DNA from: a virus
IMG/VR virus record: IMGVR_UViG_3300016672_000064
Strand: one strand, 5' to 3'
DNA: 43,316 nucleotides
Shown here: positions 2,148 through 18,187 of the stretch, in pieces
How the letters are laid out: each line of letters opens with the position of its first letter
How positions within the stretch are numbered: position 1 is the stretch's first letter
Translations under genes and position numbers: made by a program
Notes under the pieces: generated by a model
What the model was told of the DNA's origin: nothing
The model's input: the letters and a program-made list of their open reading frames with translations, nothing else
Database searches by the model: none

Positions 2148-2179
2148 CGCGGGGGATAGACGGGGGGTCCGCGGGGGTT
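2148..2179. repeat. attP arm-type repeats (P' arm)
   Basis: cgcgggggat at 2148-2157, acggggggtc at 2160-2169, ccgcgggggtt at 2169-2179. Same G5 motif as the P arm. Confidence 0.55.
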
Positions 2180-2592
2180 TACGCCCGCCCCTTGACCTTT
2201 TCGAAAGTGCGCAGGCCACCCAGGCCCAGCATGCCGGTCAGCAGCACCATCAGGGTCTCGGTGTCAATGCTCGGCAAGTCGGGCACGTCGGCGCCGCAGA
2301 CCTTGACCGCCCAGGGCAGCAGCGGGCGCAGCACCAGCTGGTAGCCCAGGCCGAGCACGCAGACCCAGCCGACCGCCGGGCGCCAGCCGCCTCGGAAAAG
2401 GTCGGTGCCTGCCTCCACCTTGTTGACCTCCAGCTGGGCCAAGGCCAGCCGGGTGTCGGCGTCGAGCACCGCCAGCTCGCCCCGCTGGGCCAACTCCAGG
2501 GCCTTGAGCTTGGCGTCTGCTGCAGCCGTGGCGTCCGGCAGCACCTTGTCGAGCACGCCGGTGATGAGGGGCAGGAATTGCAACATGGTCAC
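2179..2592 (-). CDS. Holin-like membrane protein (3-TM, GTA-type holin family)
   Basis: N-terminal amphipathic segment, then NKVEAGTDLFRGGWRPAVGWVCVLGLGY and further hydrophobic helices. GTGA overlap with the endolysin stop (alternative ATG at 2586). Last gene of the late operon. Confidence 0.65.
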   Translation of the reverse strand: MTMLQFLPLITGVLDKVLPDATAAADAKLKALELAQRGELAVLDADTRLALAQLEVNKVEAGTDLFRGGWRPAVGWVCVLGLGYQLVLRPLLPWAVKVCGADVPDLPSIDTETLMVLLTGMLGLGGLRTFEKVKGRA

Positions 2593-3056
2593 GCCTCTTT
2601 CAAGTTGGCCGCGATGCGCTTGGCCCAGCCGCGGCCGAACGCGGGCCAGGCTTTCAGGTCAGCCATGAGGTCAAGCCGGTGGCCGTTGAATCGGGCGACC
2701 AGGCGGGGCGCAGGCATCGAGTTGATGGCCTGCAAAGTCTTGGGGCCCAGGATGCCGTCGGGCGTTGCGTCGACCGCGCGCTGCAGGCACTTGACCGCAG
2801 CCACCACGCCGGAGTTGACCGCCATGTCGAACAGGTCGAACTTGATGCCGTCGGGCACAGCGTCGCATCCAGCCGGGCCCCAATAGTCTTGCAGGTAGAG
2901 CACCTTGGCGCGTGCCAGTGTCATCCCCTTGATGTTCTCCAGGGGGTAGGCGCGCTTGGACACCCCGAACTTCGTCTCGCCGCCCGGGTCGTCTTTTCCT
3001 TCGGTGTACCCGCCTTCGTGGCCGATCAATCGCTCGAACGCTTGGTCGAAGTTCAT
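2589..3056 (-). CDS. Endolysin, GH108 lysozyme with C-terminal PG_binding_3 domain
   Basis: LIGHEGGYTEGKDDPGGETKFG is the GH108 signature. The C-terminal part resembles a peptidoglycan-binding domain. Confidence 0.85.
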   Translation of the reverse strand: MNFDQAFERLIGHEGGYTEGKDDPGGETKFGVSKRAYPLENIKGMTLARAKVLYLQDYWGPAGCDAVPDGIKFDLFDMAVNSGVVAAVKCLQRAVDATPDGILGPKTLQAINSMPAPRLVARFNGHRLDLMADLKAWPAFGRGWAKRIAANLKEA

Positions 3057-3316: not shown

Positions 3317-3702
3317 AGATTGATCTCCGATGCGGTGCGGAAAAGGTCATCCACCTCGGCATCTGCCCAGCCGAGGGCCAGGGCCACCGACATCAGCAGC
3401 AGACTGCGCCGCTCCCAGGTGCCGGCCTCGTGCCATGCCAGCAGCGCCAGCGGGTCAACGTCGGCGCGCTCAAACCAAGCCGCGGCCACCCCCAACTGGC
3501 CTGCCGCCAGCAGTGCGGCGCGGGCCTGAAATCGGGTCACGCTCCGCGGCACAGGCGCTTGTGCGGGCACCGGCGCTTGAGCGCCGGGCGGCACCACCTG
3601 CCCTTCGTCGATCAACACCACGGCGCCATCAACCATGTGGGCCGCCGTGCCAATCAGCCGAATGCTGCCGGTCACAATGTCCAGCTCCATGCGCTGCATC
3701 AC
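3313..3702 (-). CDS. Hypothetical protein downstream of the tail fibre (possible fibre assembly/chaperone)
   Basis: Coupled ORF (GTGATG junction with the tail-fibre stop). No recognisable motif; function is guessed from position only. Confidence 0.5.
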   Translation of the reverse strand: MMQRMELDIVTGSIRLIGTAAHMVDGAVVLIDEGQVVPPGAQAPVPAQAPVPRSVTRFQARAALLAAGQLGVAAAWFERADVDPLALLAWHEAGTWERRSLLLMSVALALGWADAEVDDLFRTASEINL

Positions 3703-4865
3703 ACGCCCTCAATGAGCAGCGAGACAGAGCCGCCGTCGAACGTGTCAACGCCGCCGACGGTGGTCAACCGCACGCGCGTCAAATCCGCGCCGATGTCAAC
3801 CGATCCACCCATCCACCACACTCGGCGCGAATCGGACTGCCCGCCATTGCCCCGCGCAACCCAGGTGTTTGTCGCGCCAACACGCTCAAGCACAACGATG
3901 CCGCTGCGCACATAACCTGCGGACGTGTCCCCCGCCAGGTCAAAGCCGGTGCCCATCAGCGCAACAGCAGGCGCCAGGCCGTCGAGCGCCGAAGCCGCCG
4001 AGCCCGCGTAGCCGCTCGCAACAATCGACGCCGCTGTGCCGAGCCGCACGACAACGGGCGATGACCCGCTGGTGCTCACGCCCGACAAGATCAACGTCAA
4101 ACGACGCGCCCACGACGGAATGGGTGTGTAGTCCACAGCCACGCCGCTGGTGGTCGGCTGCGACCCTGCATCGACGTACCGCATGCGCGCCGCAGCAACA
4201 GCATCCAATTGCTGCTTGGGCACCGCATGCAGCGCGCTCGCTGCATCGCCCGGCAACACCAGCGCGCCAGTCATCGTGCCGCCGCTGCGTTGCAGGGCAC
4301 CCGCGCTCGCGGCGTTCGCTGTGTCGATCGCGTCCTGCGCGGCGTCGACCAAGCCCTCGGCCACGCTTGCCGCGGCCGCAGCGTCCGCCGCAGAACTGGC
4401 CGCCGTGCTCGCTGCGGTGGTGATCGTGTTCACCAGCTCGTCGGGGCTGACCAGCCCGCTGAATCCCACCTTGACCGACCGGCTCACTTCCTCGGCGAGC
4501 TGCTGCACCACGATGGTCACTCGGTCCAGTGCGTCGTTGAGCACGCGCGGATAGAACCGCCCCAGGTTCGTGAAGTTGGCCGGCTGTGTCGACGCGACTT
4601 TCGAGCCGATGACCAACGTGAACGCCGACGACAGCGGGGTGCCGATCCAGTTGACCGTGCCGCCCGGGTTCGTGTCCTGGTTGCTGTTCAGCGTGACGCT
4701 GTAGTGCGTCCCCCGCGTGAGCTCCAGTTCGGCAGCCGTGGCGATCTCGCCGCGCACCACCTTGACGTCGTCAACCGCGAACACCTTGAAGGTGAAGGGG
4801 AACGCCACGGTCACACCGTTGCCGGTGAACGGGCCAGCTTTGCGTGTGGTGGTGCTGATCGACAT
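3699..4865 (-). CDS. Tail fibre protein
   Basis: N-terminus RKAGPFTGNGVTVAFPFTFKVF..., an Ala/Ser-rich shaft, and the GGTMTGALVLPGD...AVPKQQLD motif common in phage fibres. Confidence 0.75.
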   Translation of the reverse strand: MSISTTTRKAGPFTGNGVTVAFPFTFKVFAVDDVKVVRGEIATAAELELTRGTHYSVTLNSNQDTNPGGTVNWIGTPLSSAFTLVIGSKVASTQPANFTNLGRFYPRVLNDALDRVTIVVQQLAEEVSRSVKVGFSGLVSPDELVNTITTAASTAASSAADAAAAASVAEGLVDAAQDAIDTANAASAGALQRSGGTMTGALVLPGDAASALHAVPKQQLDAVAAARMRYVDAGSQPTTSGVAVDYTPIPSWARRLTLILSGVSTSGSSPVVVRLGTAASIVASGYAGSAASALDGLAPAVALMGTGFDLAGDTSAGYVRSGIVVLERVGATNTWVARGNGGQSDSRRVWWMGGSVDIGADLTRVRLTTVGGVDTFDGGSVSLLIEGV

Positions 4866-4906
4866 GGGCCGCAGTGTCCGGCCCGGTGCTCAGGTCAGGG
4901 GCACCC
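4866..4906 (-). promoter_or_regulatory. Late-operon element copy A (GGGTGCCCCTGAC-N16-ACACTGCGG-CCC-ATG)
   Basis: Box 1 at 4894-4906, box 2 at 4869-4877, ATG at 4865. Starts 3 nt after the stop of the giant gene. No Shine-Dalgarno. Confidence 0.6.
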
Positions 4907-4909
4907 CCG

Positions 4910-7900
4910 TCACGGTTCCTGGTAGCCGAAGGCCAGGGCCCTGATGGGGCTGTCGGTCTCGCCGTCGATCAGAGCCTGCACCCCGGTGAACGTACGGTTT
5001 GCCTGCGCGGCCGGCAGACCAAACGCCGAGCCCAGCACGTTGATCGCGCGTTTCCTGAAACCGTCGTCGAGCTCCCCCTGGCCGATCTCCTTGCCCAGGC
5101 CGGCGATGTCACTCAGCAGACGCAGGCCCGCCGGCCCCTGGTAATCCTGGGAATACTCCGACAGGCCCAGCGCCATCTTGGCCGCGCCCGCCACCTCGCG
5201 CACCCCGACCATGAGGCCGAACAGGTTGTCGAGCTGGGCTTCCAACAGCTTGCGCAGGATCTTGTCGAGGTCTTCCCAATCGCCCGAGTCACCGGGCGTC
5301 AGGGCATCCTTGAGCGCAACGGTCAGCACCGCGGGCACCGAGTACAGCAGCAGGTAATCCGCCACCAGCTTGGCCTTGCTTTTCTCGGTCATCGTCTGCG
5401 CCACCCCGATGTTCAAGGCTGTGTTCATGAACGAGTAGAAGACCGTGAACAGCTTTTGCGCAGGGCCGCCGCGCTCGATGGCCGACAGGTCTTTCATCTG
5501 CCCGCTGCCCTGGGCGTCGATCACAGCCTGGTCGGCCAGCTGCCCCGCGCGCTCGTCGCTGTTGCCCTCGCTGATCGCCTTCTCGTAGGCGCCCAGCCAG
5601 GTGGGCACGTCGACCACCATCTGCATGCGGGTCATCATGTAGAACGCGGCATTGCTCACCCAGGTGCGCACCGGGTGCTCACCTTCCACTTGGTTGCGCA
5701 GTTCGTTCAACTCGCGGAACCGGGTGCGCGCCCGACTGGCCATGAACTCGCTGCGCTCGTTGACCTCGCGCGCTTTGCCCAGCGGGTTGGTCAGGTACTG
5801 CGCCACGCCCCGCCCGATCCACTTGCCGCCCACCCGCACGACAGACTGCGTCAGGCCGATGGGCTGGATGGCCGCTGACATGACGTTGAAGCCCAGGCCT
5901 GCAATGCTGACCCCCTGGCGCAGGCGCCCCAGCATGCTGTCCAGTTCAGCCTGCAGGCCGGCCTCGCCGCGCGCCGTGTCTTCAATCCAGGTTTTCAGCT
6001 GGCGCACCGCCGCCGGCCCGTAGGTCTCGCGGATGGCGTTGTTGATCTTGTCGCTGCGCAGCAGCTTGTTGACGTCGATCAGCCACTCGTGGAACGCCAG
6101 GTCGTGGATCACGTCCTGCGTGCCCGAGTAGACGGCAGCCAGAGAGTAGAGCAGGGGGCGACCCTTGACGGCTTCGGCCCGCGACTTGGTGAACCCGCGC
6201 CGGGTGGTCGCGCTGGTGTAGGCCGCTTGCATCTGGCGCTTTGCGTCCTCGGCGTCGGCGTGCTGCTCGGCCCGGTTGTTGGCCAGGGGGTCGTACTTCA
6301 CGGGGTAGTACCCGCCGCGCAGCTGCACGGTCTGACCGTCCGCCGTGCGCACGCTCAGGGGCATCGGGTCAACCCATGCGGGTTCTTTCCCGTAGACGCG
6401 GCGCTCCTTGGCACCGATCAACGTCCGGTAGCTCTCGAAGTGATCCCAAACCGCTTGCACCGCTTGCCAGTCGGCGGCCGACAACGTGGCCAGCACGGGC
6501 TCGATCTGCTGCACGGTCCATCCCTCGCCGTCGAGCATGCGCTGGATGTTGCCCTCGTTGCCCATGTTCAAGGCCATGGCGAACACCTGTTCGCGGTTCA
6601 TCGAGCGGTTGATCGCCGCGAAGAATTGCCCCTTGCCGTCCATGCGCCCGGCCTTGATCACAGGGGCCAGGATGCCGTGCAGCCTCTCGGTGGCCTCGGC
6701 CCGCATGCGCGTTTCCATGTCGGCCGCCTCGTTGGCCGGCCGGATGAAATACTCCCACACCGGGCCGCCGTCCTTGCCGCCGTCGAACACGCGGGCCCAG
6801 GTGGCGGCCTTGATGTGGGCCGCGCCGAAGTCCTTGACCGCTTTGAACCACCGGGCCGTGCGAGTGGCAGGCGTGCGGGTGTCGGCGACTCGTCCGCCTG
6901 CGTTGGCCACGATGCTGTCGGCGATCTGGTCGCGCACCGCCTGGAAGTCGCGCAGCTGCTTGGCGGTCAGCAGGGTGTTTTTGACCCGACCCAGCTTCTC
7001 GATCTGGCGCACCGTGTCGCGCAGGCCGCGCAGCTCGTCGACCGTCATGTCCTTGTAGCTGGTGCGTCCGGCCTCGTCCAGCAGTTCGGGCGGGATGTCC
7101 GGCTCGAACCCCTGCTCGCGCTGCGACTCGACCCAAGCGGCCAGGGTCTTGCGCTTGGCAATCTGCTTGAGCGTGGTGCTGCCTGCCAAGTCGAAGCGCA
7201 CCAGCAACTGGGCGATCTGGTCGTAATAGTCGGCGTCCAGTCCCTTGGGCTTGTCAGCGAACCGGCGCAGGTAGGAAGTGATTTTCTCGACCTCCTCCTG
7301 CGCACGGGTCGCGGCGCGGGCGGCCTGCAGGTTGATGAGCTGGTGGCGCTTTTCGGCCAGGGCTTCCTCGGTGTTGCCCGCCAGCATGGCGCGCTCGGCG
7401 GCCTTGGCCGCGCGGGTCTCCGCCGTGGTGTACTGGCTGGGCCGCAGGTTCTTGACCTTGGTGCCGCCCACGATGCGCTCGGCCTGCTGCTTGGCCACCT
7501 GCGCCATGATGTCGACCGTGACCCGCTGGCCCTTGGCATTCACCTCGCCGGTGTCGCGGCGCACCTGCATGCCGCGCTCCAGTGCTGCGATCTCGGTCGA
7601 CAGGAACCGTGCGCGCACCTCGTTGTGGATCGCGCGGTCGACGGCTCGCTGCAGTCCCTCGGGCGTGCCCAGGTCGCCGAAGCGCTCCAGCATCCGCCGG
7701 CTCGTCATGCCCTCGATCACCGCCTGCGGTGGTTCGGCGTCCAGCAGGGCCTTGACCATCTGGTCGCCCGACTCCATGCGCACGGTCTCGGCGATCACGT
7801 CGGGGTGCAGGCCCCGGGCGCCCGAGGTCATGCGCAGCTTTTGCAGCTTGCGCCAGGGGGCATCCGGCTTGTTGCCGTAGCGGCGCTCCAGCTCGGCGGT

Positions 7901-10900
7901 GTCGAGCTTGCCGTAGAGGTTGCTGTCCGGCCCTAGGGCCTGCACCGGGGCGTCATCGTCGGGCCGCTTGTAGTCGTGCCACAGGGAGTAGATCGACTCG
8001 CCGCGCAGGGCGGCGTTGAACTTGTCCTCGAAGTCACGGGTGTCGTGGCGGCCGTCCTCGTCGGGAAGCAGGTAGCCGGCTTCCAGCAGGCGCTCGGCCA
8101 TGGCGTCGATGCTCAGGCCCCCATTGGCGCGCAGCACCGGCGTGCCGAAGACACCCGACTCGGGTTTCTCCTTGGGGTCGATCCCCCACACCGTGACTGC
8201 CTGGTCCTTGTTCAGGCCGCCCAGCTTGGCCACTGCGGTCAGCAGGTCGTCGTTGATGACGTCCAGCTCCTTGCTGGCCTTTGGCTTGTCGGGGGCTTGC
8301 GCGGTCTCGTCGGCCTCACCCTTGCCGGTCAGGAATTGCCAGGCCCGGTACACCGGCTGGCTCATGACCTCGCGGCGCACCTCGGCGCGCACCTCGCGGC
8401 GCAGGCTGTCGTGCAGCTTCTGCAGCTCCTTGAGCTTGCGATTCTTGGCGCCCTCCAGCCACTTCATGTCGCGCAGGCCCCGGGCCTGCAGCTCCTCGAT
8501 CGCTGCCTGGCTGGCATCGGTGGCCAGCGCGTGGTAGGCGCGGAAGTCGTCGAGCGACATGCCTGCGTCTTCGGCGGTCTTGAACAGCGGGCCCAGCCGG
8601 CGCGCGGCCTCGGCTTCCTGGATGGCCTGGGTGCTCGCCAGCATGCGATCCATGACACCGCGCACGTCGTCGGTGAGCTCGACGCGCAAGGCCTTGAGCT
8701 CCTTGTAGACCGACAGCAGCCACGCGCGGAACTTCTGGAACATGCTCTGCAGCTCCAGGCTGGGTGCGTTGCCCTCGAAGGCATAGGCCTCGAAGCCCCG
8801 GGCAAACTTCTCGTGGTGCGGGCGCTTGCCTTCCAGGCCGAGGGCAAACCACTCGGTCAGCGGGCTGGTGGTCTCGCTGCCTTTGATGCCGAACCAGTTG
8901 AGCAAGGTGGTGGCGTCGGTGACGATCGAGCGCTCGCCCTCGGTGACTTGGGCGCCAGCGTCGATCTCGGCCTGGATCCGCGCGGCCAGGTCCAGCTGCA
9001 CCTCCAGGAAGAAGTGCCCCGATTCATGGATGAACGTGCTGAGGTCGGCGCCTGCGAACAGGCTCAAGATCGCCGGGCTGCGGGTCAGGTCGTCGGGCAG
9101 GTTGATGCTGCCGCGGGCGGCGCCACCGTTAGCCGGTGCGGGAGCGTTGTGCATCTCCTTGCCGTCGAACACCACGATCACGTCACTGCTGGGGATGTCG
9201 GCAGTTTGCTCAGGTGGCGCGCTGGCGCGCTGCTCGTCTGTGAGCGTTGCACGCACCTGGGTGTTGCGCGCCTCTACCTCACCGGCCAGTTTCAGGTAGC
9301 GGTCGCGCATGACCCGGCCCGCGCTGGCCGGGTCGCTCAGACCATCCAGCGTGCTCCACAAGTCGATGACTCGGGCGCCCTCGGGCAAGGCCTGCAGATC
9401 CGCCTCGGCTTTCTCGGCGGCCACGGGGTCGAACTCTTTGCCGATTTCCATGGCAGTCTGGAACCCGGCCCACTTGTCGAAGGCTTCAGCCAGCGTCTGG
9501 TTGGCTTCGAGCAGGGTGCGCAGATCCGCGTTCACCTGGTCGCTGTACGTGCTGGGGCTGTCCTCGGGCGAACCGCCAGCGGCAAAGCCCTCGATTTCTT
9601 GAATGCCGTGCTGAATCTCGTGCAGCAGAACGGTTTTCAACCGGTCACCAAACCCCACGTCAGGCGAAACGCGGATCTCGTTGCGCGCAGGGCTGTACGC
9701 GGCATTCGCACCGTCCGGGAGCGACACCCCAGCCGCAGTGCCTTCGCTTTGCCGTGCCGCGACAAAAAACCCAATTTTTGCAATTGCTGGGTAGGCGGCG
9801 TACAGCGCGGGGTGGTGCAGAACATCACCAACGGTCAGCTCTGCCAGAACGTCCACGCCCCGGCGGGCGATCAATTCTCGCACCCCTTCCTCGCCAATTG
9901 TCGCAGCCTCGTGGTCGCTGATCTCAAAGCGCCATTTGCCATCAACACCTTGGTGCCAACCGGTCTCCCGGCGCACGGTCTCGGCGTCGTCGCCCTGTGT
10001 GATTCGCGCCTGTGCCGTGGCCAGTGCGTGGGTGTCCGCTGTTTGTGCGTTGGGACCTGCAAACTGGTTCAGTATGCTGGGGTTGGCGGGGTCGAACTCG
10101 CCCGAGTTGCCGGTGGCGGATTTGATTTGCTCCCCGCTGAACACCGTCAACTGGCTAAATGCCCCGTCGTCAGCTAAGGTCAGCAGTCCATCGCGGCCGG
10201 CGGCTTTTGCGTTCCGGGTGTCCGCACGTGAGAACTCACGGGATAAAACAGTTGCCGGGTCTTCAATTCGCAAATACACCGGCAGAACGTGCCCGCCGCC
10301 TTCACGGGCCCCGTCCAGCGCCGCAATGATGTTAGCGTAGTCCGGCGCGGCGGCGAAAAACACGCCTGTGGTCTTGCTGCGGGCAGCGTCAAAGGTGTCA
10401 AAGTCGGCAGTCGTCCCGTGATACACCACCAGCGGGCGCCCCTGGTCGTCGACCACCTTGGAGTCGCCAAACCACTTCCAGAAGTTGCGCACGCCTTCCT
10501 CGGTTTGCGCGATCGGTTGCCCGTTGCTGTTCGTGGTCGGGCGGTCCTTGCCGTCGATGTTCAGGGTGTCGGGCAGCACTTCGGTCTGCTGCAACACCTT
10601 GCCCGGCGCCTGCCGGTACATGCTTTCGCTGGTGCTGAAAGCGCGATTCTTGCCCTTGTTCTCGACGAAGCCCAGCGCCTTGTAGAACTTGATCAGTCGG
10701 GCCTTGTTGCCGCCGAAGTCTGCCGATGGTGACAGCACCACATGCTTGCCCGTGCGGTCGGCGTAATCCAGCAGCGCACGCATGGCTGCCGTGCCTGCGC
10801 CCTGACCGCGTGCACCCTCAGGCACCACGATCTTGGACACCGTGATGCGGTCGCTGCTTTCCTGCACGGCGCTGTCGATGCCGGCCGCTCCCCACTGCTC

Positions 10901-12637
10901 GCGCACCGCGTCAAGCCCCGGGCCTTGATCCAACACCTGCCCACCCTCGACCCCCTTGGACTGCACGCGCAGCCCGTAGCGGGTCGCCAGCTCCTGCGGC
11001 GTCTGCCCCAGCTTGGCAGCGGTCACGGCGTAGAAGTTGGCCAGCAGGTTCGCATACTGCAGATTGACGTCGGAGGTGAAGCGCTTGACGCCATCCAGCT
11101 GGGCCTTGAATTCGTCGCGCAGGTCGTCGCGCATCTGGCGCCAGCTTTGATCCTGCTCCTGCTGGCCCAGCGCGGTCTGGATGTCGGCGGCCAGCTGGTC
11201 ACCTTTGGCCTGCATGTACTCGCGCGCCTCGACCGGGCTCATGGCGTCCGGTGCAGTGCGTGCGTTGTCGACCAGGGTCTGCATGAACGTCTGCCCCGGC
11301 CCGGCGGTCAGCAGCTCGGCGGTCGGGATCACCACGTCCCCACCGGTGGCCGCCGCCTGGTTGATCTGCTCGGCCACGCTGGGCAGCACGCTGGCCACCT
11401 CGTTGATGTCGACCGCCTGCAGCAGGGCCTTGGCTTCCACGTAGACGTTGGGCACGCCTTCCTCGGTCAGCGACTGCATGAACGTGGCGAAGGCCGCCGG
11501 GTCGCGCTCGCGCACCTTGCTGGCCTCGGCCAGGGTCAACAGTTCGCCCAACACCTTGGCATGGGCTTCGGACTGCTGCGCTTGTTGCTCAAGCCGCGCA
11601 TGGCGCGTGCGCACGTGCAGGGCCGACTCGACAATGCCGCGCACGATGCCGCCCACTGCTGCGCCCACGCTGCCCTCATCAAGGGCACCGGCCAGCTGGA
11701 TATCAGCATCGGGGTTCGTGAGTTGCTGGCGCAGCAAGTCCTGCGCAAGGCTTTCCGTGGCTTCCTGCGCACCCTCGGATGCCGCGGCCACGCCGATGCG
11801 CGCCAGCGCGCCCGTGAGGGATGCCTTTACGTTGTCCGCGACAGGGCCGATCAGCTTGTCCAGCGCCCATTTTTCCGTCACGCCGGTGACCACTGCGCCG
11901 GCCAGCGTGGCCAGGTCTTTGGCCCCTTGGCTGGCGTTGTCCCCCTGCACCTTTTCGTCCATGACGTCGAGGCCTTGAAGGTACAGACCGGCGGGGCCGG
12001 TAAAGGGCAACATGAGGATCTGGCCGCCCACCTGGCCAAGCCCCGCGCCCACCTGGTCGGCAAAGGTTTGCCGCTGCTGCGGAATCATGACGTCGTTGCG
12101 CGCGAAGCCCTTGACCTCGCCGCCGACGGCGCGGAAATCCTGCCCGACCAGCGGGCCGATCGCCGACTCGCGCGCGCCGGCCGACATGGCCCCTCCTCGG
12201 GGGGTGGGCAGCATGTCCGTGATCGCGCCGAGGATGTTGCGCTGCAAGAGGTTCAACCCGACACCAAACCCGCTTACGGCCATGCCGCCGGCTTCGATCA
12301 GGCCGCCGCCCAGCTGGCGCGCGCCACGCTCCAGCGTGCTCATGTTGTCGACGTCATCGTGCGCGATCGCGGCCTGGTTCGGATCGGTCAGGGTGCCCGC
12401 GGTCTTGGGGTACTGCCGGGCCAGGGTGTCGTAGTCGAGCGCATCCAGCCGGGCCGTGCGCTCGATCTCGGGCTGGCGCAGGCGCACCGCCTCCACCGGC
12501 ATGTTGTAGTCGCGGGCCAGGGTTTGCAGCCGGGCCTCGGCGTCAGGCTGACGGTCGACCGCGCTCGCCATCGACGCGCGCAGCGCCTGCGCGGTGTCTT
12601 GTTGCAGCAGGTCGTCGTAGGGGTTGCGGTCAGCCAT
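4910..12637 (-). CDS. Giant multidomain (polyvalent) virion/ejection protein: GNAT-like, ART-like, two HExxH zincin-like modules, C-terminal TM region
   Basis: Continuous 7.7-kb ORF. Start taken at MADRNPYDD (ATG 12637, ATGGCTGA overlap with upstream stop); alternative start at 12691. Motifs: ARGQGAG..FYKALGF, GRPLVVYHGT..GVFFA..VYLRI, LLHEIQHGIQEIEGF..LAGEVEARN, FIHESGHFF. Confidence 0.85.
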   Translation of the reverse strand: MADRNPYDDLLQQDTAQALRASMASAVDRQPDAEARLQTLARDYNMPVEAVRLRQPEIERTARLDALDYDTLARQYPKTAGTLTDPNQAAIAHDDVDNMSTLERGARQLGGGLIEAGGMAVSGFGVGLNLLQRNILGAITDMLPTPRGGAMSAGARESAIGPLVGQDFRAVGGEVKGFARNDVMIPQQRQTFADQVGAGLGQVGGQILMLPFTGPAGLYLQGLDVMDEKVQGDNASQGAKDLATLAGAVVTGVTEKWALDKLIGPVADNVKASLTGALARIGVAAASEGAQEATESLAQDLLRQQLTNPDADIQLAGALDEGSVGAAVGGIVRGIVESALHVRTRHARLEQQAQQSEAHAKVLGELLTLAEASKVRERDPAAFATFMQSLTEEGVPNVYVEAKALLQAVDINEVASVLPSVAEQINQAAATGGDVVIPTAELLTAGPGQTFMQTLVDNARTAPDAMSPVEAREYMQAKGDQLAADIQTALGQQEQDQSWRQMRDDLRDEFKAQLDGVKRFTSDVNLQYANLLANFYAVTAAKLGQTPQELATRYGLRVQSKGVEGGQVLDQGPGLDAVREQWGAAGIDSAVQESSDRITVSKIVVPEGARGQGAGTAAMRALLDYADRTGKHVVLSPSADFGGNKARLIKFYKALGFVENKGKNRAFSTSESMYRQAPGKVLQQTEVLPDTLNIDGKDRPTTNSNGQPIAQTEEGVRNFWKWFGDSKVVDDQGRPLVVYHGTTADFDTFDAARSKTTGVFFAAAPDYANIIAALDGAREGGGHVLPVYLRIEDPATVLSREFSRADTRNAKAAGRDGLLTLADDGAFSQLTVFSGEQIKSATGNSGEFDPANPSILNQFAGPNAQTADTHALATAQARITQGDDAETVRRETGWHQGVDGKWRFEISDHEAATIGEEGVRELIARRGVDVLAELTVGDVLHHPALYAAYPAIAKIGFFVAARQSEGTAAGVSLPDGANAAYSPARNEIRVSPDVGFGDRLKTVLLHEIQHGIQEIEGFAAGGSPEDSPSTYSDQVNADLRTLLEANQTLAEAFDKWAGFQTAMEIGKEFDPVAAEKAEADLQALPEGARVIDLWSTLDGLSDPASAGRVMRDRYLKLAGEVEARNTQVRATLTDEQRASAPPEQTADIPSSDVIVVFDGKEMHNAPAPANGGAARGSINLPDDLTRSPAILSLFAGADLSTFIHESGHFFLEVQLDLAARIQAEIDAGAQVTEGERSIVTDATTLLNWFGIKGSETTSPLTEWFALGLEGKRPHHEKFARGFEAYAFEGNAPSLELQSMFQKFRAWLLSVYKELKALRVELTDDVRGVMDRMLASTQAIQEAEAARRLGPLFKTAEDAGMSLDDFRAYHALATDASQAAIEELQARGLRDMKWLEGAKNRKLKELQKLHDSLRREVRAEVRREVMSQPVYRAWQFLTGKGEADETAQAPDKPKASKELDVINDDLLTAVAKLGGLNKDQAVTVWGIDPKEKPESGVFGTPVLRANGGLSIDAMAERLLEAGYLLPDEDGRHDTRDFEDKFNAALRGESIYSLWHDYKRPDDDAPVQALGPDSNLYGKLDTAELERRYGNKPDAPWRKLQKLRMTSGARGLHPDVIAETVRMESGDQMVKALLDAEPPQAVIEGMTSRRMLERFGDLGTPEGLQRAVDRAIHNEVRARFLSTEIAALERGMQVRRDTGEVNAKGQRVTVDIMAQVAKQQAERIVGGTKVKNLRPSQYTTAETRAAKAAERAMLAGNTEEALAEKRHQLINLQAARAATRAQEEVEKITSYLRRFADKPKGLDADYYDQIAQLLVRFDLAGSTTLKQIAKRKTLAAWVESQREQGFEPDIPPELLDEAGRTSYKDMTVDELRGLRDTVRQIEKLGRVKNTLLTAKQLRDFQAVRDQIADSIVANAGGRVADTRTPATRTARWFKAVKDFGAAHIKAATWARVFDGGKDGGPVWEYFIRPANEAADMETRMRAEATERLHGILAPVIKAGRMDGKGQFFAAINRSMNREQVFAMALNMGNEGNIQRMLDGEGWTVQQIEPVLATLSAADWQAVQAVWDHFESYRTLIGAKERRVYGKEPAWVDPMPLSVRTADGQTVQLRGGYYPVKYDPLANNRAEQHADAEDAKRQMQAAYTSATTRRGFTKSRAEAVKGRPLLYSLAAVYSGTQDVIHDLAFHEWLIDVNKLLRSDKINNAIRETYGPAAVRQLKTWIEDTARGEAGLQAELDSMLGRLRQGVSIAGLGFNVMSAAIQPIGLTQSVVRVGGKWIGRGVAQYLTNPLGKAREVNERSEFMASRARTRFRELNELRNQVEGEHPVRTWVSNAAFYMMTRMQMVVDVPTWLGAYEKAISEGNSDERAGQLADQAVIDAQGSGQMKDLSAIERGGPAQKLFTVFYSFMNTALNIGVAQTMTEKSKAKLVADYLLLYSVPAVLTVALKDALTPGDSGDWEDLDKILRKLLEAQLDNLFGLMVGVREVAGAAKMALGLSEYSQDYQGPAGLRLLSDIAGLGKEIGQGELDDGFRKRAINVLGSAFGLPAAQANRTFTGVQALIDGETDSPIRALAFGYQEP

Positions 12638-14774
12638 TGGTGCGTGGGGGGAGTCGGTTGCGGGCGCGGTAGAGGTTTTCCACCGCTGCATCGGTCACGG
12701 GTCGGCCTGCGCGGCGCAGCGCGGCCTCGATCTGCCTGCGCTCGGCGTCCGGCACGCGAACGGCGTCGCCCGGGGTGACCAAGCCCGCCGGGGTGTTGGT
12801 CGAGAAGCCCATGAAGCCGGAGACCTTGACGGGCTGGAACAGGGCCGCGGCTTCCTCGCGCAGTTCCTTGTCGCCCAGCTTCTTGCCGAGCACCGATTCG
12901 CGCGCGGCGATCCGCTCCTGGAATGCCGACATCAGCGTGCCGACCTTCTGCGCGCCGCTCTTGTCGCTGTCCTTGGGCGTCGGGTCGATGCCGTTCTCGC
13001 GCATCATCTGGTCCAGGATGCCCTTGGCGCTGACCAGGTGGGTGCGCTTTTCGGGGCTGTTGTTCAGGTCGGTCTGCTGGCCGGCCAGCTGCTTGAACTC
13101 AGCAGGCGCAAGTCGGTCGCGCAGCGCGCCCAGGTTCGTGCGGGCCAGCAGCTCGGGGTCGCTCGTGAGCCGGTAGTACAGGCCCCAATCGGTCGCCACG
13201 TTCTCGCCCTTGGCAATGCGACTGGCAAAACCCATCAGGTCGTCGACCTTGCCCGGCGGCAGGGCCGAGCGCACCGACGAGGGCAGATCGTGGAAGCGCC
13301 CGCCGTTGGCCAGCAACATGCGCTGCGCCTCGGCGACCAGGGCGTCCTGCCGCTCGGTGGTTGCCTTGTGGGCGACCTCCCACTGCTGGGTTGCATGGGT
13401 CACCGCAGCCTTGACCGTCATCGGGTCGGCGTCCGGGCCCAGGCGCGTGCGCACCGCTGCCTGCACGTCCATGAGGGTGGGCGCCGGCGGTGCACCGAAA
13501 CCCTCCTCCAACATCTTCATGTTTTTGGTGACGTAGGCCTGCGTTTCGTTCGGCATGAACGTGAGCCACGATGCACCCTCCGACCGACTGGCCTTCGCGC
13601 GCATCAGCGCATCGTCAAGCGCACCAGGCCCGGCGTTGTAGGCCGCCCAGGCTTTGGCCGGGTCACCGTCGTAGCGCTTGACCATGGCCTTGAGATAGTC
13701 CCGGCCCACACGGGCCAGCTCCTCGGGGCTGTCGTCACGGGCCGGGGTGACGCCGAACCCCGGGTCGCGCTGCGTGCCGGGCATCACCTGCATTTCCCCG
13801 CGCGCCCCCTTGGGGCTGGTCAGCAGCTGGCCGTCCTTGCCGTAGCGCCGGCCGCCGCTCTCTGATTGCATCGTGATGCCGACTAAGCGGTCCATGTCCG
13901 ACGGCTGTAGCTTGGGCGCGAGCTCGCCGACCACCTGGCTGCCGACCTGCACCGCCACGCGCGTGCGCATCTCCTTGTCGAGCACCGTGCGCACCGCCAG
14001 CTGGTCGTCGGCGGTCATCGAGCCCTTGTGCTTGTTCAGGTAGCCGCTGGCCAGCTCGATCTCGTCGTTTTCCAGCGCAGTCTTGATGGCCAGTCGGTGC
14101 GCTGCGCTCACTTCCTGGATCACCTGCTCGTCGGCCCAGGTCTGCGGCATGCCCAGCAGGCGGGCCTTTTCCTTGACCGCCGCGGTCACGGTCTGCACGC
14201 CCTGGGTCACCAGCCCGTCGTCGGCCAGGTCTTTGTAGTTCAGGGCAATCTGCCGCTTGGCCGCGCTGGCCGCCGCGTCGTAGGTCGCCGACTGATAGGT
14301 CTTGAACTCCTGTGCAGTGTGGCGCATCGCGTCGCCGCGCAGCTGCACGCGCATCTGGCCCGCCTGCTCGCGGAAGGCCTGCCGCTGGGCGTCGTTGCCC
14401 AGGCTCTTCTCGATCTCGCCGGCCTGCGCCTCGAACGCCTCATCGTACTCGTCGGCCAGCAGCTTGCCGCTGGGCCGCTGCAGGGCTTCGACCCCCTTGG
14501 CGCGCACCAGCCCTTGTTGCCCATATTGCAGATCGAACAGCCGCTCTTTGGCCTGGGTCACCGCGTCGATCACGCGCACCCGGTTGGCCTCCTGCTGCAT
14601 GTCAAGCGCGATGCGCCCGGCAGCCTGCCCCGCCTGCTCGACAGCCTGCCCCATCTGTGCGCCTTGGCGCGCGGCAATCGCCCCGGCGTCCGGCCCTTGC
14701 GGCGCCGTGAAACGCGCATTCGGCCCCGCCGACAGCGCCACGTCAAACGAATCACGACTCGGCACGCGCGGCAT
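12630..14774 (-). CDS. Internal virion protein with soluble lytic transglycosylase (SLT) domain
   Basis: QSESGG...GEMQVMPGT...AAYNAGPG (SLT motifs, about nt 13596-13898). Start at MPRVPSRD (ATG 14774, 1-nt TAATG overlap with the upstream stop). Confidence 0.8.
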   Translation of the reverse strand: MPRVPSRDSFDVALSAGPNARFTAPQGPDAGAIAARQGAQMGQAVEQAGQAAGRIALDMQQEANRVRVIDAVTQAKERLFDLQYGQQGLVRAKGVEALQRPSGKLLADEYDEAFEAQAGEIEKSLGNDAQRQAFREQAGQMRVQLRGDAMRHTAQEFKTYQSATYDAAASAAKRQIALNYKDLADDGLVTQGVQTVTAAVKEKARLLGMPQTWADEQVIQEVSAAHRLAIKTALENDEIELASGYLNKHKGSMTADDQLAVRTVLDKEMRTRVAVQVGSQVVGELAPKLQPSDMDRLVGITMQSESGGRRYGKDGQLLTSPKGARGEMQVMPGTQRDPGFGVTPARDDSPEELARVGRDYLKAMVKRYDGDPAKAWAAYNAGPGALDDALMRAKASRSEGASWLTFMPNETQAYVTKNMKMLEEGFGAPPAPTLMDVQAAVRTRLGPDADPMTVKAAVTHATQQWEVAHKATTERQDALVAEAQRMLLANGGRFHDLPSSVRSALPPGKVDDLMGFASRIAKGENVATDWGLYYRLTSDPELLARTNLGALRDRLAPAEFKQLAGQQTDLNNSPEKRTHLVSAKGILDQMMRENGIDPTPKDSDKSGAQKVGTLMSAFQERIAARESVLGKKLGDKELREEAAALFQPVKVSGFMGFSTNTPAGLVTPGDAVRVPDAERRQIEAALRRAGRPVTDAAVENLYRARNRLPPRTNG

Positions 14775-15382
14775 TACTTGCTCCCCCAAAACCCGCCCAG
14801 GGAGGCAGTGTTTGCTTTGAGCCCGCTGGTGTTGGGGCTGCTGTTTGCGGGGGGCTTGGTCGGGGTGTCGAAGGCGCCGGCCTTGTTCATCGAGTACCAA
14901 CTCGACGCGACCGACCCGGCGCTGCCGATGATCGACGTCAACGCCGCCCTGCCGGGCGAGATGGCGCGGGCTGCCGCCCGAGTGCTGCGGGCTTGCGACC
15001 GAATGTTCGTCGCCTCGATGCGGTGGCCCCAGGCCTGCGCGATGGCGTTCGCCTCGATCGCGTTGGTGTCGAACTCGCCCAGGTAGTCGGTGCCCGCCAG
15101 CACTTGCACGGCGCTGCCCTCGTCCAAGGCGATGCCGTTGGCACCCATGGCCGCGATCTGCCGGCCCTTGAGGCCCGCGGTCTGCATGCGGCTGCGCTGC
15201 ACTTCGCGGCGCCCGGACTCCAGGGTGCGCTCGGCGGTGCGCTCGGCCATGCGGGCGTTGATGTCCGCCATGTCGGCCTCGAAACCCAGGCGCGACTTTT
15301 CAGCCCTCGCACCGTAGTACGCGGACAAGGCACCGCCAACGGCGCCGCCGGCCTGCATCAACAATGGCAGAAACTGCAGCAT
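14774..15382 (-). CDS. Putative internal virion/ejection protein
   Basis: First gene after element B, upstream of the SLT protein and the giant protein. Hydrophobic Gly/Ala N-terminus MLQFLPLLMQAGGAVGGAL. Function inferred from position. Confidence 0.5.
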   Translation of the reverse strand: MLQFLPLLMQAGGAVGGALSAYYGARAEKSRLGFEADMADINARMAERTAERTLESGRREVQRSRMQTAGLKGRQIAAMGANGIALDEGSAVQVLAGTDYLGEFDTNAIEANAIAQAWGHRIEATNIRSQARSTRAAARAISPGRAALTSIIGSAGSVASSWYSMNKAGAFDTPTKPPANSSPNTSGLKANTASLGGFWGSK

Positions 15383-15423
15383 GCGCCGCAGTGTCCGCCC
15401 CGGTGCTCAGGTCAGGGGCACCC
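15383..15423 (-). promoter_or_regulatory. Late-operon element copy B
   Basis: Box 1 at 15411-15423 abuts the TAA of the upstream gene. Box 2 at 15386-15394. ATG at 15382. Confidence 0.6.
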
Positions 15424-17499
15424 TTACCCGGCAGCGTCGGCCTCGACAGCCATGGCCACGATGGTCAGCGGCAGTGGCGCCGATTGGCGCACGCAGACCT
15501 GGCCGCCGTTCTGCCAGGCTGGCGACACCACAATGCTGATCTCGTCGGTGACCAGGTCGGGCGCCGTGCCCATGCTCTCGTTGGCGCGCGGCTTGAACTC
15601 GGTGAGTTTGTCGAAGCGCGGGCCCGCCGACACGCCGCTGCTGCGGTAGACGCGCAGCAGCACCTTGTTGACGTTCTTGACCCGCCCCTGCCCAAACGCC
15701 GACATGCCTTCGATCACCAGAGGCAGCGATTGGATGTCGGCCTCGATCGGCAGGCCGACGGTCACCACGCTGGCGGGTTCATCCAGCGCGACCTGGCCGC
15801 CGGTGACAACTCGCTGCGGGTGCTCGCCGCCATCGGCCAGGATGCTGACCGTGCGGCCTTCGAGGTGGCCCAGGCCGCTGATCGTGGTGGCCGGTGCGCC
15901 CCGGTAGGTCAGGCTGCTGTCGACAAAAACCGCATCTTCCAGGGTGTCGAAGGAGCGCTGCGCAAAGCGCTCGATGTAGGTCCGGGCCGCGCCGTCGACC
16001 GTGCGGCGCACCGCCACATAGACCGCGTCCTCGTTGCCCTCGGCCACCGCGCACACGTCCAGGAACTCGTCACCGTTTCCCGTGTCGTGTGCGTGCCATG
16101 CGCCGATCTGCTGCTCGGGCACGTAGGTCAGGCCCAGCAGGCTGCCGTCGCTGCTGACGCACCACGCGGTGGGCACGGGCGCCTTGGCGTAGGCCATGCC
16201 CGTGATTTGCTTGTTGTCGAACAGGTGGGGTGCGCGCAGGCTCAGGTCGCCCGTGAGGTAACCCCCCGCCGAATCGTTGTAAGCCATTTCGCGCAGGTGG
16301 CCGCCGCGGGCCGCCCCGAACAGGATGTTGTTGTTGACCACCAGGGGTTGCACGTTGCTGGCCCCCACGTAGGACTGCGGCAACACGCTCGGCGGCTCGG
16401 CCGGGCTCAACACCCCGCTGGGCGGCACCACACGGAACTCGGTCGAGCCGGTGAGCAGCACCAGGGAGGTCAGCGGCACGATGTGCAGCACCCGGCTGAC
16501 CTGGCGGGCCGCGATGCGGAAGGTGATCGCGTCATTGTCCCGCGGGGGCACGGACGAATTGAGGTTCTTCTCGGTGCCCGTGCGGGTGCCCCAGAAGTTT
16601 TGCGGCTTGTTGGTCGTGCCTGCGAAGATCCGCCGCTGCTCGAAGTAAGACACCGCGCCGGGATAGTTGCCCGCGCCGGTGAACGGATCGGTGCCCGACG
16701 GCGGGGTCCGCGTCAAGTCGGGCGTGATGTTGTCATCGCGGAACGAGGTGCCCGTCGACGCGCCCACGTAGCCGAACGGGCCGGTGCTTCCGTTGTCGCA
16801 GCGATAAACCGCGTAGCGAGTCGCCCCCGAGGCCGCTGTCCAGCTCACGCTGTTGTAGGCGCCCGTCTGGTCCAGGTTGTTCGTGCAGCTGGCCGATGCC
16901 GACGCCGCGGACTCGTCGCTGTCGTCGTTGATCGACGTCACCACGTAGCTGTAGCTGCGGGTGTTGCTCGGGCTCGGTGCGGTGGTGGCGACCGCGCCCG
17001 GGCTTGCGGGCGCCGGCAAGGTGGGCGCGAACGTCACGTCGACCAGCTGCCAGTTGGTCGCAGCCAATCGGCGCAGCTCGCGCACCGGGTGGTTCGGGTG
17101 CACCAGGGTCAACACGTCGGCCGACTGCACGATCTTGATGCCGGCCAGGTCGGCCTGCGCGTAGGTGGTCGCCACTTCGTAGGCCGTGCCGGGCGTCGAC
17201 TCCACCGTGGCGCCCATCGTGTGAAATCGGATGTAGCCCGCGCCAAACTCCAGCACCAGGGTCTGGTCGCTGGAAAACTCGAAGGGGATCAGTCGCACAC
17301 TCACACCGGTGTCGCCCAGCTTGGCCTTGCGCACGAACTGCAAGCCGGGCCGGTTCTCGACGGGCCCGTGGGGCAGCACTCGAAAGTTGCGACACGTGGC
17401 CAGGCCGGTCTGGAACTTCGGGTCTGCGATCTGCCCCCAAAACTCCGGGGTCACCACTCCGCCGCTAAACGATCGGAAGAAGCTGCGCACCGTGCTCAC
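15424..17499 (-). CDS. Tail tubular/nozzle protein (phage stabilisation protein-like)
   Basis: 691 aa. N-terminus FRSFSGGVVTPEFWGQIADPKFQTGLATCRNFRVLPHGPVENRPG resembles podovirus tail-tube B/nozzle proteins. GTGA coupling to the upstream gene. Confidence 0.5.
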   Translation of the reverse strand: MSTVRSFFRSFSGGVVTPEFWGQIADPKFQTGLATCRNFRVLPHGPVENRPGLQFVRKAKLGDTGVSVRLIPFEFSSDQTLVLEFGAGYIRFHTMGATVESTPGTAYEVATTYAQADLAGIKIVQSADVLTLVHPNHPVRELRRLAATNWQLVDVTFAPTLPAPASPGAVATTAPSPSNTRSYSYVVTSINDDSDESAASASASCTNNLDQTGAYNSVSWTAASGATRYAVYRCDNGSTGPFGYVGASTGTSFRDDNITPDLTRTPPSGTDPFTGAGNYPGAVSYFEQRRIFAGTTNKPQNFWGTRTGTEKNLNSSVPPRDNDAITFRIAARQVSRVLHIVPLTSLVLLTGSTEFRVVPPSGVLSPAEPPSVLPQSYVGASNVQPLVVNNNILFGAARGGHLREMAYNDSAGGYLTGDLSLRAPHLFDNKQITGMAYAKAPVPTAWCVSSDGSLLGLTYVPEQQIGAWHAHDTGNGDEFLDVCAVAEGNEDAVYVAVRRTVDGAARTYIERFAQRSFDTLEDAVFVDSSLTYRGAPATTISGLGHLEGRTVSILADGGEHPQRVVTGGQVALDEPASVVTVGLPIEADIQSLPLVIEGMSAFGQGRVKNVNKVLLRVYRSSGVSAGPRFDKLTEFKPRANESMGTAPDLVTDEISIVVSPAWQNGGQVCVRQSAPLPLTIVAMAVEADAAG

Positions 17500-18149
17500 T
17501 GGTTGAACCTCCAGGGGATTCCGCCGCGCGCCGCGATCTGCTGCGGTGTGTGTTGTTCAGTGCGGCGTTGCTGATTCATGTCGGAGGCCTGGGCCTTGCC
17601 CAGCCATGCGGTGTGCAGCTGCAGCTGGGCGCGCGCCTCGGCCCGGCCGGCCTCGTTCTTGAGCACCGGCCCGGCCAGATAGCTGGCCAGCAGGTGCACC
17701 AGCGCCTGCACCGCGAGCGGGGGGAACTTGCCAACGTCGACCGCCGCAGAGGTGAAACGGATCACTGCCTCGGGTTGATCGGTGACGATCACCTCGGTGC
17801 CGTCCCCCAAGGTTTCGATGTCGAACGGCCGCTCGATCTCGGTCAGTCCTTGGTTGTAATCCGCCGCCGCCCCGGGCGGCAGCACCGCGCGGACGCGCAC
17901 GGCCCCGGCGGGCATCGCGTAGGCGTAGGCCCACGGGCCCACCGTGGTGGTCAGGGGTGCCCCTTGCACGCGCCGCCGCGCGAACTTCCAGTCGTGCGCC
18001 TCCAGCAGCACGCTGCGCGCGATCGGATACCACTGCGCGCAGTGATCCGCCTGCGCCGAGCCTTCGGGCGGGTCGATGCTGACGACCGTGGCCTCATCGC
18101 CCAGGGCTGCCAGGGCCAGGTTGCAGATGTCGGTCTCGGTGGTTGCCAT
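17496..18149 (-). CDS. Tail tubular protein A/adaptor-like protein
   Basis: N-terminus TDICNLALAALGDEATVVSI....SAQADHCAQWYP.AR..LLEAHDWKFA is typical of podovirus adaptor/gp11-like proteins. Sits between the head and nozzle genes. Confidence 0.5.
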   Translation of the reverse strand: MATTETDICNLALAALGDEATVVSIDPPEGSAQADHCAQWYPIARSVLLEAHDWKFARRRVQGAPLTTTVGPWAYAYAMPAGAVRVRAVLPPGAAADYNQGLTEIERPFDIETLGDGTEVIVTDQPEAVIRFTSAAVDVGKFPPLAVQALVHLLASYLAGPVLKNEAGRAEARAQLQLHTAWLGKAQASDMNQQRRTEQHTPQQIAARGGIPWRFNQ

Positions 18150-18160
18150 GTCGAACCCTC

Positions 18161-18187
18161 AAAAAAGAGGGGGCGCGCGGCCCCCTC
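18161..18187 (-). terminator. Rho-independent terminator (minus strand) between head and tail genes
   Basis: Minus strand: GAGGGGGC-CGCGC-GCCCCCTC followed by TTTTTTG. Immediately followed by GAGGG and the ATG of the adaptor gene. Confidence 0.7.

Follow-up and report, generated by a model that had tools for sequence, protein, structure and literature searches.

Why would a phage build several enzyme-like modules into a single protein and place its gene among the virion genes? The question is raised by a 7.7-kb open reading frame (ORF) in IMG/VR virus record IMGVR_UViG_3300016672_000064, whose whole 43,316 nucleotides (nt) were analysed here and are called the window below. A reading made earlier from the letters alone (the sequence-only reading) had described this frame, at 4910-12637, as encoding a 2575-amino-acid (aa) polyvalent protein that combines a GNAT acetyltransferase, an ADP-ribosyltransferase (ART)-like module and two zincin-like modules with an ejection-protein-like C-terminus. 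We confirm the frame; it is on the minus strand, a point that reading had omitted. Our answer, which we consider probable, is that the giant protein is the largest internal (core or ejection) protein of a podovirus resembling Bordetella phage BPP-1, and that it is built as a conserved chassis with one slot for enzymes that would be delivered to the host at infection.

The giant gene and its variable slot

The longest version of the frame starts at an ATG at 12691 (2593 aa). We preferred the ATG at 12637, because it overlaps the stop codon of the upstream SLT transglycosylase gene as ATGGCTGA, because the identical protein, encoded on ENA metagenome contig ERZ3624461 NODE_388, was independently called with this start, because the N-termini of close homologues align to the protein from residue 1, and because BPP-1 couples its homologue Bbp10 to the SLT gene in the same way. 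The SLT gene, whose own longest ORF extends to 14900, is translationally coupled to the giant gene. The giant gene and its parts are as follows.

4910-12637, minus strand: giant coding sequence, 2575 aa, ATG at 12637 and stop codon at 4910-4912, homologue of BPP-1 Bbp10
10922-12637, minus strand (aa 1-572): conserved N-part, with LPD22 and a Gly-rich, partly hydrophobic region, ending in ...GGQVLDQG
12308-12586, minus strand (aa 18-110): LPD22 (Pfam PF18834, 2e-21)
9119-10921, minus strand (aa 573-1173, 601 aa): variable cargo slot with GNAT, ART and LPD23/ZN1
10610-10915, minus strand (aa ~575-676): small GNAT module (Pfam Acetyltransf_1 at aa 594-657)
10064-10486, minus strand (aa 718-858): ART-PolyVal module (Pfam PF18760 at aa 730-848, 3e-20)
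9905-10066, minus strand (aa 858-911): LPD23 (Pfam PF18838, 5e-21), modelled with a predicted local distance difference test score (pLDDT) above 90
9158-9904, minus strand (aa 912-1160): ZN1, the first HExxH module, with HEIQH at aa 1006-1010 (nt 9608-9622)
8618-9118, minus strand (aa 1174 to ~1340): ZN2, the HExxH domain of the backbone, starting at the ARGSINL junction
4913-8617, minus strand (aa 1341-2575): helical C-part, in the position of T7 gp16/IVP-D
5312-5452, minus strand (aa 2396-2412 and 2424-2442): hydrophobic helices, conserved in the family consensus

This plan of LPD22 and N-region, variable slot, ZN2 and a helical C-part of about 1250 aa recurs in thousands of relatives. BPP-1 matched the giant protein in tblastn with 54% identity over 64% of the query, and PHROG 9880 was matched with E=0. 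With the C-terminal 1405 aa as query, more than 1,794 clusters at 90% identity were retrieved, and a scan of 1.84 billion cluster representatives found the backbone in 5,607 clusters at 50% identity (E<=1e-30). Cultured phages with the backbone account for 51 records, all podoviruses of 39-48 kb, and their hosts are Bordetella, Caulobacter, Xanthomonas/Xylella, Pseudomonas, Vibrio, Cobetia, cyanobacteria and others. LPD22, which the sequence-only reading had overlooked, stands at the N-terminus of nearly all family members according to the precomputed Pfam annotation of the relatives. Against Bbp10, the N-part aligns with residues 24-611 (33% identity), ZN2 with 770-1109 (47%) and the C-part with 1051-2050 (61%). 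Ratios of nonsynonymous to synonymous substitution rates (dN/dS) of 0.10-0.17 for the GNAT, ZN2, the C-part and the N-part (0.12 for aa 356-572 of the latter) indicate purifying selection.

For a census of the slot, 116 relatives were anchored on the N-part and ZN2 of the window protein. Their homology to it ends at about aa 572 (...GGQVLDQG) and restarts at about aa 1174 (ARGSINLPDDL...ADLSTFIHESGHFF). Between these points the slot measures 2-799 aa, and its contents, those of the window included, fall into 38 classes. Judged by Pfam matches of representatives, they comprise a PBECR1 ribonuclease (RNase; 29 members), RadC/JAB (18 members), a single ART, a 317-aa ART-PolyVal cassette, the mini-GNAT of the window on its own, another GNAT, a GNAT with LPD23 and ZN1, and a number of unknown cassettes. 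In three relatives the slot is all but empty (2-18 aa). In this set only one cassette exceeds the 601 aa of the window's, and no other matches the latter in its entirety. A protein of 2571 aa, P0361, is colinear with the window protein through ART, LPD23, ZN1, ZN2 and the C-part at 68% identity. From aa 1174 to the end the four closest relatives match it at 93-95% identity, but in the N-part at only 50-61%, and their cargo differs.

How such differences arise is seen in a sister phage (L012, a contig from Logan SRR9924803), which shares 92-94% nucleotide identity with the window over 12327-20900 and 4210-9118. Within the giant gene identity is lost at 11572-12326 (aa 104-355), at 10598-10922 (the GNAT) and at 9119-10412 (the remaining part of the ART together with LPD23 and ZN1). 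Breakpoints lie at codon 572/573 and exactly at 1173/1174, identity resuming at nt 9118. Because identity breaks at the slot edges, this comparison is direct evidence that cassettes are exchanged there by recombination. The combination of modules on which the sequence-only reading had dwelt is real but no one-off, its enzymes being the cargo of one recombining slot in a very large family.

Three further observations concern the chassis and its junctions. The stretch lost at aa 104-355 (minus strand) forms a second mosaic patch, in which the Gly-rich region after LPD22 diverges from the sister phage between flanks that are 92-94% identical. Module boundaries often end in a hydrophobic residue followed by [LFY]-x-Q, as in VLDQ/G, VLQQ/T and SILNQ/F (10922-10936, 10583-10597 and 10061-10075, minus strand; the slash marks the boundary), and in many relatives (P0121-P0239) the slot ends in ...LxQ(x) right before the invariant ARG...ADLSTF-HExxH. 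This motif may mark a site of cleavage or a linker, and we treat it as no more than a lead for mapping cleavage sites; [VILFM][LFY]xQ was rejected as a signature of cleavage in general, being not enriched in the whole protein (7 occurrences vs 5.4 +/- 2.2 in shuffles). Finally, a second clade of the chassis, 28-30% identical, is found in Pseudomonas AF-like podoviruses (phage AF gp16, L004, and P0241-P0360). It has an N-terminal LPD22 and a variable middle that often contains LPD23/ZN1, and some members have extra modules between ZN1 and ZN2.

Enzyme-like modules of the slot and the adjoining ZN2 domain

All motif strings quoted in the sequence-only reading were found at, or a few codons from, the positions it had assigned to them, including the GNAT motif (aa 605-659), VVYHGT (aa 737-742) and GWHQGVDGKWRFEISD (aa 893-908), all on the minus strand. 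Its GNAT call was correct: Acetyltransf_1 scores 25.7 bits vs a cut-off of 20.7, which is above the threshold of the model. The acetyl-CoA motif A, R-G-Q-G-A-G, lies within aa 609-615, and R-x-x-G-x-G is kept in 11 homologues. A comparison with PDB sequences gave 14 weak matches, 13 of which were GNATs. The module belongs to a conserved family of about 115 aa, has a dN/dS of 0.17 relative to the copy in P0124, and is the sole cargo of the relative P0125.

The ART-like module, likewise rightly recognized, matches ART-PolyVal with 73.8 bits vs a cut-off of 31.2 and covers the whole model (1-140). H740 is kept in 59 of 60 homologues, D816 in 52 and Y788 in 49. The clade to which the family belongs, Tox-ART-HYD2, is defined by its H-Y-D configuration (Iyer et al., PMC5512222), which we tested as His in strand 1, Tyr in strand 2 and Asp in strand 5, a pattern whose catalytic Tyr is not assignable from sequence. 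ART activity is plausible on these grounds, not certain.

For the region downstream of the ART, the picture drawn by the sequence-only reading had to be revised. The string beginning with GWHQG, which had been taken as part of a zincin-like module, is present and belongs to the Pfam domain LPD23, which had been overlooked. In ZN1, which follows LPD23, HEIQH is succeeded by the motifs EGFAxGG and YxxLAGEVEARN, conserved in a 30-sequence alignment and reading HEIQH, EGFAAGG and YLKLAGEVEARN in the window. In proteins P0001-P0360, LPD23 is followed by an HExxH 67-164 aa downstream in all 61 cases, then by EG[FL] within 12 aa in 60 of them and by a later GExE[AS] in 56. Because the HExxH is there in every case, LPD23, a 58-aa Pfam family of unknown function, looks like the N-terminal sub-domain of a zincin-like HExxH domain of about 300 aa, for which as such there is no Pfam model.

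The second HExxH that had been pointed out, HESGH at aa 1204-1208 (nt 9014-9028), is also present, and it forms part of the conserved backbone rather than of the variable enzymatic region. It is followed by HEKFARGFEAYAFEG, with at least 95% conservation in 101 relatives; the conserved pattern is HESGH plus HE..ARGFE.Y, the HExxH occurs in 143 of 143 cluster representatives, and dN/dS is 0.10. Since ZN2 is present in all relatives, we regard it as a backbone element, with a role in processing or structure more likely than one as an effector directed at the host. Its counterpart in Bbp10 (residues 700-1000) has been used as a seed of the 'CLCA_X' (CLCA-like) zincin family, in a study based on FFAS and HHsenser (Lenart et al. 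2013, PMC3650047).

An AlphaFold2 (AF2) model of aa 856-1420 (mean pLDDT 81) places each HExxH in a helix, after two to three beta-strands and before a helix with a conserved Glu. Iyer et al. give this topology for zincin metallopeptidases (MPTases; PMC5512222). When 39 aligned family members were scanned, sub-threshold matches were obtained to the zincin families DUF6782 (10 of 39, best 1.2e-6), Peptidase_M78 (6) and SprT-like (5); ZN1 of the window matched DUF6782 with E=0.043, the value of 1.2e-6 coming from a homologue. When PDB sequences were searched with a profile, the sole hits were two zincins, IrrE and FtsH (E=1.4 for each). In BFVD, all structure matches of the ZN1+ZN2 model were phage proteins named 'large polyvalent protein associated domain' or 'crystallin motif'. 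Two aminopeptidase-N chains that appeared in the Foldseek search of the same model (E~4-5) were discarded as noise. By motif and predicted topology ZN1 and ZN2 thus appear zincin-like, and their placement in a known zincin family is tentative. Of the earlier claim of two zincin-like modules, the HExxH motifs and the conserved downstream Glu helices stood, while profiles stayed below threshold and Foldseek found no solved zincin.

Taken as a class, the assignment to polyvalent proteins in the sense of Iyer et al. 2017 was borne out, with four diagnostic or typical Pfam domains present. Such proteins combine at least two disparate activities in one phage polypeptide, and here LPD22, GNAT, ART-PolyVal, LPD23 and two HExxH modules are joined; their genes lie among late or virion genes, and this one lies between the gp14-like and SLT genes and the tail-fibre gene. 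UniRef labels the homologue in a Bordetella parapertussis prophage a large polyvalent protein. For each module a separate set of homologues exists among other large proteins of phages. The whole giant protein had no match among PDB sequences and nothing useful in NCBIfam, and in the literature we found nothing experimental on LPD22, LPD23 or ART-PolyVal.

Predicted ejection, processing and competing explanations

The giant gene is the last and largest of a gp14-gp15-gp16-type operon located downstream of the capsid, portal and tail-tube genes, and the succession of gp14-like gene, SLT gene, giant gene and tail-fibre gene recurs in BPP-1, Caulobacter BL94 and Pseudomonas AF. Its position is that of the largest internal or ejection protein, after the SLT gene, as the sequence-only reading had stated. 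Bbp10 has been listed as a divergent homologue of IVP-D (gp16) (Hardies et al. 2016, PMC4819975). The helical C-terminus was also described correctly: about 1150 aa are predicted to be nearly all helical, the AF2 model of aa 1421-2575 is almost wholly so (pLDDT 66.7), and conserved hydrophobic helices lie near the end, with the strongest Kyte-Doolittle peak of the whole protein (1.88) at aa 2424-2442. C-terminal hydrophobic helices are reported in all gp16-like proteins (review PMC8954989). The interpretation as an ejection protein is based on synteny, on the claim of Hardies et al. and on these helices. We do not claim homology of the C-part to T7 gp16, which rests on Hardies et al. 2016; position and helices fit an ejection-protein-like C-terminus, and similarity to T7 gp16 was seen neither by profile nor by fold.

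In our proposal, a few copies of the protein would belong to the internal core and be packaged in the head; for gp16, the number in T7 is 3-4 (PMC8954989). At infection the protein would be ejected through the tail and help to form a channel across the envelope, and the slot would reach the cytoplasm. The slot must act in a cytoplasm, because the GNAT needs acetyl-CoA and the ART NAD+, and because the cargos of sister proteins are RNases and RadC. In the model for T7 gp16 the middle of the protein, flanked by the first membrane region and by the C-terminal transmembrane helices, is cytoplasmic (PMC8954989), which fits the position of the slot. The cargo enzymes would then modify host proteins ahead of all phage gene expression. 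ZN2 would probably cleave the polyprotein and thereby release or activate the cargo, a role suggested by its invariance and by its start, which in all relatives coincides with the downstream slot edge.

Several results weigh against this proposal. Only one strongly hydrophobic helix was detected in the protein. In hhalign the C-part of the family matched T7 gp16 or a 6-member gp16-C profile with a probability of 1.8-3% and E-values of 0.015-0.028; both runs aligned the same motif, RGGYYPVKYDP with hkGTYVPHVYD, and a run against T7 gp15 alone gave a weak match only. A Foldseek search of the C-part model (pLDDT 66.7) against PDB returned MukB/SMC-like coiled coils only and no T7 gp16, and the giant protein did not match PHROG 342. 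As for the modules, the GNAT aligns with Pfam and PDB sequences only over the beta4-alpha3-beta5-alpha4 core of the full fold (beta1-alpha1-alpha2-beta2-4-alpha3-beta5-alpha4-beta6), and it is truncated to this core plus about 40 residues. Because nothing but the core aligns, it is by sequence comparison a shortened GNAT, the conserved block of ~115 aa implying a reduced N-terminal arm. Minimal GNATs of about 100 aa are known (COG2388). In the ART, the aromatic position 760 of G-x-[YFW]-F is a Phe (Y in 24, F in 20 and W in 13 of 60 homologues), which makes the H-Y-D triad uncertain. Foldseek of the ZN1+ZN2 model against PDB found no solved zincin (no match with E<=0.001; best E 0.59), and neither HExxH module matched the Pfam model MPTase-PolyVal. 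Finally, we found no virion proteomics for the Bbp10 family in the literature, and the papers on Ab31, on a Xylella phage and on BPP-1 cryo-electron microscopy contain nothing on the giant protein.

The truncated GNAT, the Phe at one aromatic position of the ART and the unconfirmed zincin fold could also mean that the modules are inactive remnants, the slot being mainly a spacer by which the mass or length of the internal core is fixed, or a source of binding surfaces. The existence of slots of 2-18 aa, which implies that cargo is dispensable for the chassis, would agree with this. However, H740, D816, GNAT motif A and both HExxH motifs with their Glu helices are retained, the GNAT evolves under the constraint given above, and each of these modules is also conserved in many other proteins, as a family of its own. 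We therefore judge loss of function to be quite improbable.

A different possibility is that the modules act before release of the phage, in the producing cell or in the capsid: ZN1 and ZN2 would mature the core by proteolysis during assembly, proteins of the phage or the host would be late-infection targets of the GNAT and the ART, and after processing only the C-part would be ejected. In phage P1, DdrB undergoes processing prior to packaging, and processing at this stage is among the MPTase roles named by Iyer et al. (PMC5512222). A head protease gene in the window (19934-20755) makes processing during assembly plausible, and an invariant ZN2 beside varying cargo would suit a housekeeping role in assembly. 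Against this stand the cargos of the relatives (RNases, RadC/JAB, ARTs and GNATs), which are typical conflict effectors. Their recombination between phages that are ~93% identical fits a host-directed arms race better than assembly, and a late structural operon with fusion to a core protein is the pattern of the injected T4 Alt and N4 virion RNA polymerase (vRNAP). On balance we hold action in the producing cell to be unlikely, and prefer delivery at infection.

The names of homologues suggest yet another function. In GenBank these are called 'lysin', 'lysis protein' or 'crystallin beta/gamma motif-containing protein', and the authors of the phi24B study suggest that the metallopeptidase of the phi24B polyvalent protein degrades peptidoglycan; by analogy, the metallopeptidase modules of the window protein might cut peptidoglycan peptides at entry. 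Yet no peptidoglycan-hydrolase family matches the giant protein, the SLT domain resides in the neighbouring gene, a GH108 endolysin and a holin are encoded separately at 2179-3056, and the GNAT and the ART require cytoplasmic cofactors. A lytic role is thus very unlikely. We rejected the labels 'crystallin' and 'lysin' as uninformative, no such domain having been found in the giant protein; the former stems from a short pattern match.

Tentatively, the proposal of delivery at infection may be taken further. Bbp10-type proteins could form a delivery platform for polymorphic effectors, the phage counterpart of Rhs/CdiA, in which a chassis common to thousands of podoviruses offers one junction-defined slot for interchangeable effectors directed at the cytoplasm, and in which ZN2 would cut (hydrophobic)-x-Q...ARG junctions after ejection and so free the cargo. 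Rhs/CdiA polymorphic toxins resemble the window protein in their conserved chassis, their sharply bounded variable effector region and their breakpoints at a conserved junction. Rhs proteins undergo autoproteolysis by a protease situated at the junction, which is where ZN2 is placed. The window protein differs in that its variable region is internal, not C-terminal, that no immunity gene is evident, and that delivery would be by phage ejection.

The nearest relative with a name is Bbp10 itself (NP_958679, 2052 aa), an orthologous gene with the same operon position and the same SLT coupling. It has only ~158 aa between the anchors, in contrast to the 601 aa with GNAT, ART, LPD23 and ZN1 in the window protein. 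T7 gp16 is alike in being encoded by the last and largest gene of a gp14-like operon, in being mostly helical and in having hydrophobic helices near its C-terminus; the window protein is twice its size, and gp16 is without GNAT, ART or zincin modules. In K1E/SP6-type phages the SLT domain is found in a neighbouring ejection gene, as it is here (PMC8954989). T4 Alt, an ADP-ribosyltransferase, and N4 vRNAP provide precedents for enzymes that are made late, packaged in the head and injected to act before phage expression. Alt belongs to the R-S-E clade of ARTs, not to H-Y-D, and neither protein is set in a gp16-like chassis; moreover, their injection was demonstrated experimentally, whereas that of the window protein we infer.

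In the study of Iyer, Burroughs, Anand, de Souza and Aravind (2017, PMC5512222), polyvalent proteins of phages and conjugative elements were predicted to be packaged and injected, a GNAT family was described whose neighbour is 'typically' the ART, and zincin MPTases were found to be prevalent and proposed to process the polyprotein. The window protein agrees with this account in being giant, multi-domain and encoded among virion genes, in its GNAT beside an ART, in its HExxH metallopeptidase-like domains and in its predicted injection with the DNA; LPD22, LPD23 and ART-PolyVal are Pfam families that derive from the same study. The polyvalent class, the GNAT-ART pairing and the idea of ejection were hence already known, and the window protein itself adds little to the 2017 concept. 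Unlike our account, that study is silent on Bordetella phages, on gp16 and on internal virion proteins, and the named relatives of the window protein are betaproteobacterial (Bordetella, Aquabacterium, Hydrogenophaga, Thiobacillus); nor did we find stated there a single fixed cargo slot in a conserved ejection-protein chassis. This view of slot and chassis and the link between LPD23 and HExxH are modest new points. The most useful addition is the sharply bounded slot beside the conserved, zincin-like ZN2.

Experimental support for the polyvalent class is increasing, though for families other than that of Bbp10. The 2811-aa gp47 of phi24B, which is unrelated, was detected in virions by mass spectrometry and provides the sole analogous evidence of packaging that we found, and the 2198-aa gp25 of E. 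coli phage PTXU04 is essential. The latter was rejected as evidence for the Bbp10 family, PTXU04 being absent from the 51 backbone-matching phage records.

The family context is of practical use. If the protein is packaged and ejected, an acetyltransferase, an ADP-ribosyltransferase and a metallopeptidase-like enzyme would enter the cell before phage genes are read, the earliest moment at which a host could be taken over or its defence systems countered. As the cargo is held in one precisely bounded slot (aa 573-1173), it should be possible to swap or delete the cassette cleanly. Natural near-isogenic phages with different cargo (~93% nucleotide identity outside the slot) offer ready-made comparisons, and BPP-1, the Caulobacter Rauchvirus phages, Pseudomonas AF and Xanthomonas CP2 are cultured relatives for experiments. 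Were the effector-platform idea true, slot contents would amount to a catalogue of first-minute host-takeover and anti-defence enzymes.

The phage and its other genes

The window is a complete, circularly assembled genome of ~43.3 kb, as follows from an SNF2-like helicase gene that spans both of its ends with a 20-21-nt terminal repeat. Judged by its gene content, the phage is a temperate podovirus related to BPP-1 (Rauchvirus). The two have in common an integrase, a 3TM (three-transmembrane) holin, a GH108 endolysin, a GP7-type capsid and a Bbp16 cement protein; further BPP-1-like features are the Bbp13/Bbp14-like tail tube, the portal, the terminase and Prim-Pol. The genes referred to above, apart from the giant gene, are the following.

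1-454 and 42349-43316, plus strand: SNF2-like helicase gene, split, the first 20-21 nt of the window being repeated at its end
2179-3056: GH108 endolysin and holin, separate from the giant gene
3699-4865, minus strand: Bbp9-like tail-fibre gene, downstream of the giant gene
12630-14774, minus strand: SLT transglycosylase gene, Bbp11 homologue (38% identity; Pfam SLT, PHROG 10475; 714-aa gene call)
14774-15382, minus strand: T7_gp14-family internal virion protein gene (Pfam T7_gp14, 5.6e-10; PHROG 418 'internal virion protein')
19934-20755: head protease gene

The named relatives come from Bordetella, Aquabacterium, Hydrogenophaga, Thiobacillus, Sterolibacterium and Ferribacterium. Given these origins and a G+C content of 66% in the window, the host is probably a betaproteobacterium.

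The product of the tail-fibre gene resembles the BPP-1 tail fibre Bbp9 in its N-terminal ~200 aa only (39.5% identity), and its C-terminus is unrelated. BPP-1 carries a tropism cassette, its diversity-generating retroelement, which the window phage is without: blastp and tblastn found no homologue of Brt, Avd or Mtd in the window. Just downstream of the portal gene, a 750-aa ORF (21010-23262, minus strand) had no Pfam or PHROG match. Identity to the sister phage stops near 20900, and at this site the relatives have genes of 425-518 aa. The 750-aa ORF may be a second variable virion gene.

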